Of a stretch of DNA of 64,000 nucleotides, positions 30,310-34,435 are shown piece after piece; positions within the stretch are counted from its first letter, which is position 1; each line of letters begins with the position of its first letter. The notes below the pieces were generated by a model. The model did no database searches. It saw nothing but the letters and a program-made list of their open reading frames with translations, and was not told the origin of the DNA. Source of the stretch: Sulfolobales archaeon HS-7 (GTDB lineage Archaea > Thermoproteota > Thermoprotei_A > Sulfolobales > Sulfolobaceae). The stretch lies in NCBI GenBank assembly GCA_019704295.1, contig AP024596.1, positions 1,920,001 through 1,984,000 on the forward strand. The letters are read 5' to 3'. The position numbers and the translations under genes were made by a program.

Positions 30310-30630
30310 TTGAGCAACAAACCCGTAAAGATGACCGATGAGGAGCTAACAAAGGAGTTATCTAAGACAGAGAAGGAAGCAGAGAAAAAAGATAAAAAGA
30401 AACAGTGGGTTGAAAAAATGATAAAAAGCGCTAAGACTTATTATAAAATATGTCCCTACTACGATAAAAAAAATGGGAAATGCTTCCTATCTCTAGGCGA
30501 TAGGTGTACACGTGATGGAAAATTTGAGACGTGTCCGGTATTTCTCAACTTCCTTGAGAATAAGTATAATGAAATATCAGCTAGGAAAAAGATTTTGCCT
30601 ATGGATTTCACTGATTTAACAGTAGCTTAA
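30310..30630 (+). CDS. Conserved crenarchaeal Cys-motif hypothetical protein
   Basis: CPYY-x6-C-x6-C-x8-CP pattern. Confidence 0.75.
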   Translation: MSNKPVKMTDEELTKELSKTEKEAEKKDKKKQWVEKMIKSAKTYYKICPYYDKKNGKCFLSLGDRCTRDGKFETCPVFLNFLENKYNEISARKKILPMDFTDLTVA

Positions 30631-30758: not shown

Positions 30759-30837
<79 letters not shown>

Positions 30838-30939
30838 CTTCTATTAAAATGAAGGGGAGTTACGTTCTCCTCATAGAGGCATGAATAAAACATAAAGCCT
30901 TATTTTTGGAAAGCTGTTACTTAATCATGAAAGAGGGTA

Positions 30940-31096
30940 CTGCTGCACTAATTTACGTAACAAAGTTTGGCGGGAACAAGGGAGGAGAATCCTGGAGGAG
31001 AAACTTGGACTGACGCAGGCAATAAAGCAATTGGGAGTAGGTAGGACTACTTTATACAGGACATGTGAACGTCTCGAAAGCCCTGTTCGGACTTAA
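30940..31096 (+). pseudogene. N-terminal HTH remnant of a Sulfolobales tRNA-targeting tyrosine integrase
   Basis: Frameshifted translation LIYVTKFG/EQGRRILEEKLGLTQAIKQLGVGRTTLYR resembles the recalled N-terminus of these integrases; lies about 100 bp after the tRNA. Confidence 0.65.
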
Positions 31097-31219: not shown

Positions 31220-31382
31220 TTATCGTTCTTTTGCGAACTGTAATTAATTTATGGGAAAGATAGATGAAATACAGTAAATTGCTGAGCGTAATTCCCCGCC
31301 CAGTGATTGTAGTAATATTGAATTTAAATTCGTTATAGTTATTAAAATAAACTGAATTCGTAATGGAGACGTGAATTACACC
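31220..31382 (+). repeat. MITE-like ~160-bp element, copy A
   Basis: Aligns with 51345-51510 (direct) and 34239-34400 (core inverted); degenerate terminal inverted repeats. Confidence 0.75.
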
Positions 31383-31656
31383 TATACGTGTAAAAACTAG
31401 GTTACGCACCTTCTTCTGAGATAAAAATCGATCCTTTCCCTACTTTAATGGAAATTTGACTAATTTCTACTCTTGTGAACGAGATTTTCTCGTGTTTTCG
31501 AAATTGTCTCATTTTTAGTAGAATTGGCGAAACACGACTGCTAAATCGGCTTTCTCAATAAAACTCGTTTTTACTTCTCTAAGTAGTAAATACTGACAGA
31601 GGGCATAGAAGTACATTAATAGTTTCAAGAAAAGCGATATCTTTAGTTTTTCCCTT

Positions 31657-32889
31657 CTACAAAATAGCCTTATCTTTTCTAGCTAATTTCACTATGATAT
31701 CTTTAACTGCTTGGTAACCCAATATCGATTTTATGTCTTTAGTTCGTTTAATCTCAGTATATTTTTTCTCGGCATAAACTACTTCTACTACTTTAAAGAG
31801 CTTATACACGGCATTTACAGCCTTATTATAAATATCTAGTTTTTTCTTAAATTGTTCTTCTGATTCGCTAGGTTCTTTCTTAGGACGAACCATTATTTTC
31901 TGTAATACAGGGAGTACCGTTTTTTCAATTAACGGATCATTAACTCCAGTTTCTTTAAGTAACTTCTTAAGATAGTCAGGCTTACGAAGAGCCTCTGCAA
32001 GGGATATCTCCTTTAGTGAATAGATATCCAGGACTTTTATTAAAGTAGGATCAATCTCATTTGGTACAGGTTTCATTCGAAACGTTGATTTTGGTATTGA
32101 AATATCTATATTAAAGAAAGGAGCAATAAATACTGTAGGAATTTCTATCATTTGTTTATATGTATAATTAAATTTTAGTGTACGGTCAGTATCAAGACTT
32201 ATTATAAGAACGTCTTTATTTGATAAATTATTCAGCATAAAAGTATAATTTTTTCTAATTATTTTATTTTTGGAATCAAATTTATGGAACTTAAAAGCTA
32301 GATTATATACTCCTTCGTCCAATAGTCTTGTGACAAACTCACTAAACCTATTGTCATCTAAATCAAGAACTGGAATAGCATTTAACCTTTCGTCTATGGC
32401 CGAGATCTCTTTATATATTTTCAAATAATCATCTGGGTTTAACCTTAAATATGGAACAAAGATATCTGAAAAACCACAGTCTTTTAATACATTTACGCCT
32501 TCTAACAAAAGATCTTTCTTATTTACCTCAGATAGATTATCTACATCTTTCTTTGGAACATATAAGTAAGCAGCGTTGACTTTAGTATTTTCTGTCTGAC
32601 TATCTAGAAACTCTTGAGAAATACGCTGAAGTCCGCTAGCTGGCGCTCCTTTTCTAAGGATATCATGTATACGTATTAAATCAAGTAAAGGACTATTCAA
32701 TACTCTAAATACGTCAGGAATATAGATTCTTGATGGTATATCGGCTTTCGCATTTAGATACGTACTAGTTATTGCTGCTTCTGGAGTAACGAAATTACCT
32801 TTATCAGTATTTACTTCTAAAATTCTCACTTCTATGTTAGAATATTCAGATGAGTTCACAAAATCTCTTAATTTTATTGACTTAATCAT
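31657..32889 (-). CDS. TGT (tRNA-guanine transglycosylase)-fold-like protein lacking canonical catalytic motifs
   Basis: N-terminal RILEVNTDKGNFVTP; barrel segments GFSDIFVP, AIPVLD, FFNIDIS; C-terminal helix like the TGT HNL..EI helix; no DSGG, no FD nucleophile, no CxCxxC. Confidence 0.6.
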   Translation of the reverse strand: MIKSIKLRDFVNSSEYSNIEVRILEVNTDKGNFVTPEAAITSTYLNAKADIPSRIYIPDVFRVLNSPLLDLIRIHDILRKGAPASGLQRISQEFLDSQTENTKVNAAYLYVPKKDVDNLSEVNKKDLLLEGVNVLKDCGFSDIFVPYLRLNPDDYLKIYKEISAIDERLNAIPVLDLDDNRFSEFVTRLLDEGVYNLAFKFHKFDSKNKIIRKNYTFMLNNLSNKDVLIISLDTDRTLKFNYTYKQMIEIPTVFIAPFFNIDISIPKSTFRMKPVPNEIDPTLIKVLDIYSLKEISLAEALRKPDYLKKLLKETGVNDPLIEKTVLPVLQKIMVRPKKEPSESEEQFKKKLDIYNKAVNAVYKLFKVVEVVYAEKKYTEIKRTKDIKSILGYQAVKDIIVKLARKDKAIL

Positions 32890-32903
32890 AGTAGTTTCAC
32901 CAA

Positions 32904-33434
32904 CTAAAGCTCGTTAATTTTGTCCCATATAGTCTCTATTTTCGCTTCAGATTTGGTTGTGTAAGGCTTCCATTCTTCGTATGTATATTTAATATAACCA
33001 CGTTTAAGCCTAGATTGTTCTAGGCCCATCCTAATCTCCTTAAGTCTATTTACATCTTCCTTTTTCAATAACTTCAGTAACTCTTTTGCCTTCCTCTTCC
33101 CTTTTTCAGTCAATTTGTAAATTTGCCTTTCCCTTAATGTACCTTCAATATCAATTTTGTTTGCGTACCACAATAACTCCAAGTTATACAATACAAAATC
33201 ACTGTAAGGCCCATACTTATAGCCGTAAAATTCCGGGTCCTCTATCTGGTAACCTAACAACTTAAGCTCATTCCACATGTTAAAAACTAACTTAGTGAGG
33301 AAAGTCCTTCCCTTTATGGGTATATCTGGTTCTAGACCAAGGATTATTAGTAATAACTCGTCTAGAGTAAAATCGTCGAGATCATCCCTACACTCATGTT
33401 CGTCTTTTATGTATACGGTATCATCCCTAATCAA
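32904..33434 (-). CDS. Panacea/SocA (DUF4065)/YwgA-like winged-helix protein, putative antitoxin
   Basis: IKGRTFLTKLVF ... FYGYKYGPYS ... YKLTEKG signature. Confidence 0.8.
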   Translation of the reverse strand: MIRDDTVYIKDEHECRDDLDDFTLDELLLIILGLEPDIPIKGRTFLTKLVFNMWNELKLLGYQIEDPEFYGYKYGPYSDFVLYNLELLWYANKIDIEGTLRERQIYKLTEKGKRKAKELLKLLKKEDVNRLKEIRMGLEQSRLKRGYIKYTYEEWKPYTTKSEAKIETIWDKINEL

Positions 33435-33969
33435 TTAGTATTACCCCCTTAACTTCCTTTTCAAAAGTATTGTTATCTAAAATTGTATCAATTAGCACTC
33501 TGTGTTTTTGCCCTTGATTATCATGATAATCTAGGAATATGTGAATATGCGTTACTTTCCTACCAATATTTTTGAGCCAAGCTAACGGAGAAGCAACAGG
33601 TATAACCTCAGCTACTAGATGTTCAATATATGCATTTTGATCTAAATCTCTTCCACATAAACCATATTCTGTTAGCTTCCTTAAAATCTTTTTAGACTCT
33701 TTCGAACCTTTACTATATAACCTATTATATTGGATTCTCTTACCATCTTCCGCAACTTTCAAGAGTATGAATTTCTTGCCACATTTAAGACATTTGAAAA
33801 CGCTAGGCTTATTTCCTGTTTTTCTCTTTTCCTTAGTACTGTACTGTCCACCTACACTTCCAAGCTTCAGGATATTCAGATCCGCATGAAACTCTTTCTT
33901 TACTTCCTTAGATAACGTCTCATTAGCATCTATCTCGTTACCACAATATGGACATACTATCTTACTCAT
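33427..33969 (-). CDS. Zn-ribbon protein with an inserted amphipathic beta-hairpin; function unknown
   Basis: CPYC...CLKC; GAGGT ribosome-binding site upstream; 8-nt overlap with the next gene. Confidence 0.75.
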   Translation of the reverse strand: MSKIVCPYCGNEIDANETLSKEVKKEFHADLNILKLGSVGGQYSTKEKRKTGNKPSVFKCLKCGKKFILLKVAEDGKRIQYNRLYSKGSKESKKILRKLTEYGLCGRDLDQNAYIEHLVAEVIPVASPLAWLKNIGRKVTHIHIFLDYHDNQGQKHRVLIDTILDNNTFEKEVKGVILID

Positions 33970-34090
33970 TGAAGGTACCTCTTTTCGCCATGGGAGCCAA
34001 AGCCCTAAAATACACGCCGGCTAAAATAATAATGTAAGTATGATGGAATTTTGGATATCCCTTCAATGGAGTGGGCATAACATATTCCAT
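33962..34090 (-). CDS. Possible 42-aa leader ORF of the island operon
   Basis: MEYVMPTPLKGYPKFHHTYIIILAGVYFRALAPMAKRGTFNE; its stop overlaps the next start (ATGAGTAA); TATA-like TTTTAAGG at 34108-34115. Confidence 0.3.
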   Translation of the reverse strand: MEYVMPTPLKGYPKFHHTYIIILAGVYFRALAPMAKRGTFNE

Positions 34091-34238: not shown

Positions 34239-34400
34239 GGGCCGTTCCGCGTTCATTGTGAATTCAGTTTATTTAGAAAAAAAGAATGAATTTAATTGAA
34301 TGCTATCATATGGACTAGTGGAGATTGGCACTTAACAATTTCCTTTATTTAATCCCTATTTGCCATAATTACAATTCGCAATGGAAACCTGAATCACCCG
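34239..34400 (-). repeat. MITE-like ~160-bp element, copy B (core inverted relative to A and C)
   Basis: Reverse complement contains cgaattgtaatta...aaattgttaag...aaataaactgaattc, matching copy A. Confidence 0.7.
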
Positions 34401-34435
34401 CATATTATCTTAATCTATAGAATACTAATAAAACT

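Follow-up and report, generated by a model that had tools for sequence, protein, structure and literature searches.

A conserved three-gene archaeal module with a Panacea-like protein and a TGT-fold barrel, and a truncated copy of its middle gene in fuselloviruses

Do the three small genes that lie between tRNA-Arg(CCG) and argS in Sulfolobales archaeon HS-7 form a conflict or defence system, and how would their products work together? The window analysed here is the whole stretch of 64,000 nucleotides at positions 1,920,001 to 1,984,000 of AP024596.1, in a genome consisting of one 2.15-Mb contig. The trio (Table 1) comprises a zinc-ribbon gene (gene 1), a gene for a Panacea-like protein (gene 2) and a gene for a predicted TIM barrel of the TGT fold (gene 3). 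We find the same gene order in distant archaea, and a truncated gene 2 standing alone in three viruses. A role of the trio in conflict or defence, taken in general, is probable.

The three open reading frames (ORFs) are intact and co-oriented. Genes 1 and 2 overlap by 8 nt, genes 2 and 3 are separated by 14 nt, and ribosome-binding-site (RBS)-like motifs (GAGGT, GGGGT and GGTGA) are found upstream of the ORFs, so that the coupling and the one RBS per gene described in the original prediction were found again. Positions 33970-34090 are DNA upstream of gene 1, outside the trio ORFs. The translation of gene 1 contains the motif CPYC...CLKC, and that of gene 2 contains GRTFLTKLVF, YKYGPYS and YKLTEKG, that is, all three parts of the signature noted before (GRT.L.KL.F / Y.YGPYS / Y.LT.KG). 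The three genes had also been called AT-rich. Compared to a genome GC content of 39.6%, gene 3 has 30.6%, in the bottom 0.7% of the 1184 long ORFs, and gene 1 has 33.9% (bottom 3%), while gene 2, with 35.8% (bottom 7.5%) and an average GC3, deviates weakly; genes 1 and 3 only are clear outliers. A sigma-70 promoter scan of the locus, with a model unsuited to archaea, stayed at chance level.

A conserved gene order

Word-based homologue searches returned only the query or one new protein, and gene 3 alone as query matched 0 of 60 relatives. The family was reached by HMMER searches over cluster representatives, followed by iteration. Two distant gene 3 homologues were obtained in this way, each preceded by homologues of genes 1 and 2. 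Gene 2 was followed by gene 3 in 37 of the 42 non-redundant loci with enough downstream DNA (47 non-redundant gene 2 loci in all), and the full trio was recognised by profile in 33 of 41 evaluable non-redundant loci, counts in which related loci are not statistically independent. The link between genes 2 and 3 is not circular, because most loci were found via gene 2 alone. We conclude that the trio is a conserved archaeal module with the same gene order, and the neighbourhood survey bears out the three-component module that had been proposed from the window.

Homologues were reached in Nitrosopumilaceae, Nitrosotenuis, Methanomethylicaceae, Archaeoglobaceae, Thermoplasmata, other Sulfolobaceae and many metagenome contigs. 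The family is patchily distributed, being found in 8 of the 401 phylum genomes, in 6 of 251 from one order and in 4 of 96 from the Archaeoglobi class. One trio lies inside a type I restriction-modification (R-M) operon (L032), another beside HsdM (L069), and a third beside MNT-HEPN and PIN pairs (L003); many others stand among ordinary genes. No barrel relative was found among plasmids with one query. The trio is no catalogued system in PADLOC, which has no model covering the barrel, and no model of Pfam or NCBIfam names it either. A PADLOC PDC-M19A match to gene 2 (E 2e-5) was set aside, as it spans the winged helix only. No description of the trio was found in the literature, subscription journals being mostly beyond the coverage of the search. 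The earlier view that the trio is no named system agrees with these results.

Weaker homologues of 280-330 aa (L072-L108) were left out of the family, neither the barrel nor gene 1 being adjacent. These numerous proteins, with a Panacea-like N-terminus, are probably of the PADLOC PDC-M19A type; L073, the sole one scanned, is a fusion with a C-terminal DUF488. Separately, an HD-domain gene and a second small winged-helix gene, Panacea-like in L015, were seen near the trio in two unrelated genomes (L015:10659-12473, L016:120-1716). Several gene 2 copies of or near Nitrososphaerales carry extensions or insertions of 70-100 aa (L026:1885-2751, L013:8936-9727, L030:5599-6465, L046, L047).

Folds and predicted contacts of the three products

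A first fold of gene 3, made from three sequences, had a pLDDT of 51 and was discarded; the AlphaFold2 model made from 39 sequences reached a pLDDT of 81 and a pTM of 0.84. Comparison of this model with bacterial TGT gave a Z score of 20.1, with a root-mean-square deviation (rmsd) of 4.0 over 313 aligned residues, which include the TGT-specific N-terminal hairpin and the C-terminal helices. ArcTGT followed with Z 19.9, the non-catalytic QTRT2 with 18.4, and Cap10 and DpdA with 13.9; the next non-TGT barrel had Z 13.6. For the two best TGT matches the rmsd ranged from 4.0 to 4.4, at 8-10% identity. The top 50 Foldseek rows were all TGT, and comparison with the Atlas gave a TM of 0.65. Gene 3 sequence profiles gave only noise against the PDB, Pfam PF01702 did not match gene 3, and true TGTs, compared profile to profile, aligned weakly (12% and 3% probability). 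The assignment of the 410-aa protein as a TGT-fold barrel, which the original prediction had made, is upheld by the modelled structure, and it rests on structure, not sequence. The TGT zinc site (CxCxxC...H) is absent in the window copy and present in 1 of 42 members (L064), which supports descent of the family from TGT.

The residues of TGT chemistry were then searched for in the same 42 members. TGT carries a DSG motif past strand 3 (Asp102 in Z. mobilis numbering), which none of them has; LQP is found at that strand, and LYV in the window copy. The near-invariant Asp262 of gene 3 precedes strand 8 and corresponds to the first, structural Asp of the G.D.FD of TGT. TGT has its nucleophile, Asp280, three residues past the G.D of strand 8; this Asp was again found in 0 of 42 members, A, S, V, I, C or L being in the top counts and Ile265 in the window copy, with a register set by secondary structure and a low-probability profile alignment. 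At or near the site of the guanine-reading Asp156, after strand 4, a Pro146 conserved at 92% and no conserved Asp were found, in the register of a 3%-probability alignment. Because there is no DSG motif and the nucleophile position is small or hydrophobic, base exchange by the TGT mechanism is very unlikely for gene 3.

An alternative polar set (Arg38, Lys48, Arg236, Ser251, His254 and His368/Glu369) is conserved at 79-94% in most non-Sulfolobales members. The Ser251/His254 pair is absent in all four Sulfolobales copies, where the trios are intact, and the window copy is also devoid of Arg38 and His368. It keeps 15 of 24 family-conserved positions; other Sulfolobales copies keep 9-16 of 24, so the change in the barrel is clade-wide. 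These observations do not support a barrel that would attack or read guanine in the manner of TGT. A normal ArcTGT is encoded elsewhere in the same genome.

In gene 2, the PI.GR..L.K..F and YGPYS motifs are conserved in 37 homologues, with residues K48, F51, G75, P76, Y77 and S78 at 89-100%. The family profile matches the DarG C-terminal domain (7yk3, E 0.002), and gene 2 matches phrog_24871 (E 5e-23). With Pfam SocA_Panacea (PF13274), gene 2 scored 14.4 bits for a cut-off of 25.7, and 3 of the 37 members matched this family, with a best E of 5e-5. Judged from its motifs and profile, gene 2 is a putative antitoxin working like Panacea, below the formal Pfam cut-off, in agreement with the earlier reading of the middle protein as Panacea-like.

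A complex model of the window's own gene 2-gene 3 pair scored 0.62, compared to 0.00 for the best control. The mark applied to this score is reached by 58 of 80 solved pairs and 2 of 110 mismatched pairs, a yardstick that is rough here, our own alignments having been used. Contacts agreed by at least 95% between runs, and partner pLDDT was at least 76. The modelled contact involves residues 130-176 of gene 2, centred on the conserved RxGWDQLG loop, and residues 42-59, 93-101 and 317-360 of the barrel, including Lys48 and Pro52 (80-88% conserved). We take this surface to be approximately the one that TGT uses for dimerisation. The model supports binding of the gene 2 product to the gene 3 barrel.

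As to gene 1, cysteines C6, C9, C60 and C63 are 93-100% conserved in 30 homologues, forming a zinc ribbon around a long hairpin. Its C-terminal domain starts with a strand-helix-helix, followed by strands bearing His143 (66% conserved) and Arg157 (70%), both kept in the window copy; this pattern is reminiscent of RelE. The C-terminal profile compared weakly with DUF4258 proteins, of the RelE/BrnT fold (probability 55%, E 1e-4, 27 columns), while a negative control gave E 0.48. The first slot itself varies. Three loci, L064, L066 (Pfam E 1e-4) and L067, have a DUF4258-like gene on its own there, and the DUF4258 HA..R motif is kept in L064 and L066. L019 has a distant barrel, with a PIN/DUF3368 gene and a Panacea-UPF0175 fusion oriented divergently from it. 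These swaps indicate that genes 2 and 3 make a constant pair, and that toxin folds of the RNase type occupy the remaining slot. DUF4258 belongs to the BECR-fold toxin families, and its target is not known (PMC11980606); Panacea systems are toxin-first in 78% of cases, and stand-alone Panacea neutralises toxins directly (PMC10440598). Since the first slot is exchangeable (DUF4258, PIN), sequence evidence leans to gene 1 as the likelier toxin of the trio, and to the barrel as a regulator. The original prediction had taken gene 1 simply as a zinc-ribbon protein; the ribbon stands, and a candidate toxin domain is added to it.

The viral copy and a proposed wiring of the module

The fuselloviruses SSV3 (ORF16), SSV4 (ORF159a) and SSV5 carry a 159-aa homologue of gene 2, with genes 1 and 3 absent. 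This truncated protein is 90% identical to residues 1-156 of the gene 2 product of L003, and 40% identical to that of the window, a more distant relative. DNA similarity to L003 starts exactly at the ATG and ends cleanly just past the RGLDRLSPR loop, and the gene is intact in the three viruses. In a midpoint-rooted tree, the viral copy was nested with support among Sulfolobales gene 2 copies, which indicates transfer from cell to virus. Its ratio of nonsynonymous to synonymous changes (dN/dS) relative to L003 is 0.07. Gene 2 scans of viral sequences returned SSV4 and SSV5 only; the barrel and gene 1 were not used as queries on viral contigs. Capture of an antitoxin by Sulfolobales viruses has been proven for Phd-Doc (PMC11065993), in the text supplements of which SSV4 ORF159a does not appear by accession or name.

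Gene 2 without the barrel is also seen at two other loci. At L139:5058-6569 (Sulfolobaceae), an intact gene 1 is followed by gene 2 residues 1-156 fused to a region of about 350 aa, with a P-loop-like motif, a hydrophobic segment and no Pfam match. Gene 2 is thus cut there at about the viral truncation point, which hints that its first 156 residues may be a working unit. At L058:127-702, a lone full-length gene 2, 83-84% identical to Archaeoglobaceae copies, lies among small ORFs and an integrase, and is possibly a second capture by a mobile element.

We propose a wiring to which we give a probability of about 0.45. Gene 1, with its zinc ribbon and RelE/DUF4258-like domain, would be the toxin, probably an RNase, and the Panacea-like product of gene 2 the antitoxin that restrains it. 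The TGT-derived barrel, devoid of base exchange, is modelled to bind the RxGWDQLG loop and C-terminal tail of the gene 2 product; it would be a non-catalytic stabiliser or sensor, in a role comparable to that of SecB in toxin-antitoxin-chaperone (TAC) systems. Infection would disturb the barrel-Panacea contact, the gene 2 product would be released and the toxin freed, leading to dormancy or abortive infection. Residues 1-156 of gene 2, present in SSV3, SSV4 and SSV5, may then act as a counter-gene, an orphan antitoxin keeping the toxin off. That these viruses carry gene 2 alone points to anti-virus defence. The wiring is also consistent with two lone genes: an intact barrel with no gene 2 within 17 kb (L018), and the sole gene 1 found without gene 2, which has an internal stop (L172). 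On a wider reading, which is doubtful, the trio would be a pan-archaeal antiviral system, with a catalytically dead TGT barrel in control of both a Panacea antitoxin and an exchangeable RNase toxin; SSV3, SSV4 and SSV5 would counter it by means of a captured truncated antitoxin.

Several points weigh against the proposed wiring. The RelE-like assignment of gene 1 is weak, with its 27 aligned columns, and searches of Pfam, PDB and Atlas did not name this gene. In the zinc-ribbon clade, D-V/L stands in place of the DUF4258 HA..R motif, and direct comparison of gene 1 with the three DUF4258-like genes found at trio loci was not significant. The low dN/dS of the viral copy may partly predate capture, and between SSV3 and SSV4 no more than 2 synonymous and 3 conservative codon changes are seen. 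Of the 32 predicted barrel contacts, 19 are kept in the viral copy, which also has no counterpart of the last helices; its target may be the barrel, or it may have no function. The lone-gene cases L018 and L172 are single loci each. The window copy, being on a long branch, may be decaying.

The predicted tight pair of barrel and Panacea-like protein also fits a toxin encoded by gene 3, whose remodelled site would act on a nucleotide or nucleic acid; the Panacea-like protein would neutralise it by binding, gene 1 would be an accessory sensor, and the viral copy would block the barrel. The complex model supports the binding needed here, direct neutralisation is known for stand-alone Panacea (PMC10440598), the polar set is kept in most non-Sulfolobales barrels, and the viral copy retains the core contact loop. 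However, this reading is unlikely when one considers that no member has the DSG motif or nucleophile Asp, that intact trios of Sulfolobales have no Ser/His pair, that variant first slots hold toxin-like RNase genes, that a lone intact barrel exists in L018, and that for related TGT-fold proteins a role in negative regulation, not toxicity, is described (10.64898/2026.10.19.760177). The same preprint deals with TIM-B systems, namely phage P4 gop-beta-cII and relatives, in which exchangeable effectors, a BECR RNase among them, are proposed to be held in check by a TGT-related barrel. Applied to our trio, the mechanism proposed there would make the barrel an enzyme or small-molecule binder, which produces or binds an inhibitory nucleobase product that keeps the gene 1 effector off, with the Panacea-like protein as adaptor. 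The TGT fold of Cap10 reads a nucleobase-modified partner (10.1101/2025.04.06.647259), and the conserved polar residues of most gene 3 members would suit such a site. We nevertheless hold it distinctly unlikely: PF14350 does not match the trio, Cap10 depends on base-reading and nucleophile aspartates which gene 3 does not have, the residual site is lost in Sulfolobales copies, and no recurring QueC or CD-NTase gene was seen among the neighbourhoods listed, which were read by eye.

The trio could instead be a selfish module of integrative elements that serves addiction or stress response and plays no part against viruses, the viral copy being a passenger. The tRNA-linked site, the integrase remnant, the patchy spread and the second lone gene 2 on an integrase-bearing contig (L058) are in keeping with this, but trios inside and beside R-M loci, and a viral copy with exact borders that is intact in three viruses, make it improbable. 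The idea that the family is functional elsewhere and the window copy a decaying relic draws on the loss of 9 of 24 conserved barrel positions, on the longest Sulfolobales branch for gene 2, on the loss of the WGRG tail, and on the repeats and integrase fragment around the trio. Yet all three frames are intact, as are the overlap and the RBS motifs, next to an integrase of which almost nothing is left, the other Sulfolobales copies are equally deviant, and it is the window pair that passes the complex-model test, so that we give this idea very little credit.

If the proposed wiring is true, it adds to the archaeal anti-virus systems beyond CRISPR and restriction, which are poorly catalogued, a module spanning Sulfolobales, Nitrososphaerales, Methanomethylicaceae, Archaeoglobaceae and Thermoplasmata. 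Immunity would then have a third use for the TGT fold, that of a pure protein regulator, and the trio would bear on what the Panacea domain senses, a question still open. A gene without annotation in three cultured fuselloviruses would receive a candidate role in anti-defence. On the wider reading, the result would be a new defence architecture plus its counter-defence, a claim testable with existing genetics in the Sulfolobus-SSV model.

Surrounding DNA and comparison with known systems

Table 1. Features of the trio locus, in window positions
Feature	Position	Strand	Remarks
Gene 1	33427..33969	-	180 aa; N-terminal zinc ribbon C6,C9,C60,C63 and ~90-aa C-terminal alpha/beta domain; candidate toxin
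Gene 2	32904..33434	-	176 aa, TTG start; Panacea/DarG-C-like winged helix; candidate antitoxin and hub
Gene 3	31657..32889	-	410 aa; predicted TGT-fold TIM barrel without TGT catalytic residues or zinc site; candidate regulator
tRNA-Arg(CCG)	30759..30833	+	likely integration site; no duplicated 3' end near trio
Integrase N-terminal helix-turn-helix (HTH) remnant	30896..31096 (match ~30959-31060)	+	49% identity over ~35 residues, E 6e-4
Short dispersed repeat family A, like a miniature inverted-repeat transposable element (MITE)	31231..31380	.	39 genomic matches of at least 100 bp
Short dispersed repeat family B, MITE-like	31382..31546	.	28 genomic matches of at least 100 bp
Short dispersed repeat family A	34239..34402	.	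between trio and argS; 77 genomic matches of at least 100 bp

The trio had been placed in a decayed tRNA-linked insertion. The tRNA-Arg(CCG) gene and an integrase remnant are indeed present, the latter supported by its match to the N-terminal HTH of an intact 416-aa integrase adjoining tRNA-Phe elsewhere in the same genome; an attachment site (duplicated tRNA 3' end) was looked for near the trio and none was found, nor is the tRNA-argS synteny conserved. In five relatives, no tRNA or argS lies within 1.5 kb of the upstream core gene, and the borders of the insertion cannot therefore be fixed by synteny. The copy of repeat family A at 31231-31380 is inverted relative to positions 34254-34381 on the other side of the trio, with 69% identity in reverse. 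A composite transposon bounded by these inverted repeats was set aside, as they are only 69% alike and have 39-77 genomic copies.

Other observations concern the neighbourhood and the genome. The core gene at 30310-30630 encodes a 106-aa, Cys-containing protein of no Pfam family, with 60-67% identity in five relatives. The intact integrase, with its N-terminal HTH (genome 2092753-2094000, L165:2254-3501), marks a probable integrated element beside tRNA-Phe. The genome also holds two more Panacea-like genes with other partners (L140:3420-3899 and L141:3420-3881): the first faces a convergent gene of 285 aa, and the second has downstream of it a gene that seems to be split (MSKKRKS... family). 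Pairings of both types are seen again in other Sulfolobaceae (L122-L137, L143-L145), and they seem to be additional pairs that await characterisation.

We finally compared the trio to known systems. Relative to TGT, ArcTGT, QTRT2 and DpdA, gene 3 shares the fold over its 313 aligned residues, and L064 the zinc site, but identity is 8-10%, catalytic motifs are missing and no dpd genes lie beside it; QTRT2 is a precedent for a non-catalytic partner subunit. No PADLOC Dpd match and no dpdB or dpdC neighbours were found in the window. Cap10 of type IV CBASS (PDB 9ntn; 10.1101/2025.04.06.647259) is another TGT fold re-used in defence for partner binding, but it keeps the base-reading residues and nucleophile Asp248, and needs the QueC-like Cap9 and a CD-NTase. 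Neither Cap9 nor CD-NTase genes are present at the window locus, and equivalents of Asp73, Asp122 and Asp248 are absent in gene 3.

Closer likeness was found with systems in which toxin and regulator are coupled. Like PanA-PanT (Panacea/SocA/DUF4065), the trio is toxin-first in the proposed wiring, and gene 2 shares the GPYS-type winged-helix core of these proteins and of the DarG C-terminal domain. L067, with a DUF4258-like gene then a zinc-finger-Panacea gene, mirrors MqsR with ZBD-PanA (PMC10440598). The trio differs in that gene 2 is below the Pfam cut-off, a constant TGT-fold gene is added, and the zinc ribbon is on gene 1, not on the antitoxin. The TAC modules HigBAC and MqsRAC (PMC11980606) have the same order of toxin, antitoxin and third partner, and the third partner of our trio is predicted to bind the C-terminal part of the antitoxin; as it is a TGT barrel, not a SecB-like chaperone, this is an analogy only.

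Like the trio, TIM-B systems have a TGT-related barrel proposed as a negative regulator; there it is coupled to effectors that vary, a BECR RNase among them, and the middle gene is optional. In the trio, coupling of the barrel to varying first slots (DUF4258, PIN) is seen at the gene level, the effector role being putative. Unlike them, the trio is archaeal, with no PF14350 match (none at the trio locus in five trio-carrying genomes, and none at E 1 for the window protein), no TGT-equivalent catalytic residues and no convergent nuclease gene, and its middle gene is Panacea-like where that of TIM-B encodes a metallopeptidase. PADLOC gop, beta and cII did not match 39 members at E 0.01, and the TIM-B preprint names PanA only in a separate two-gene context (10.64898/2026.10.19.760177). 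As for the viral copy, SMV1 gp44 (Phd) is likewise an antitoxin-like gene of a host module carried alone by a Sulfolobales virus, from a different family, and a viral copy cut to the N-terminal winged helix (ADG.51) has been reported (PMC11065993). By defining features, the trio is not Dpd, type IV CBASS, TAC or PF14350-type TIM-B. We conclude that it is a real, conserved and undescribed archaeal system, which would work like Panacea toxin-antitoxin, TAC and TIM-B systems.

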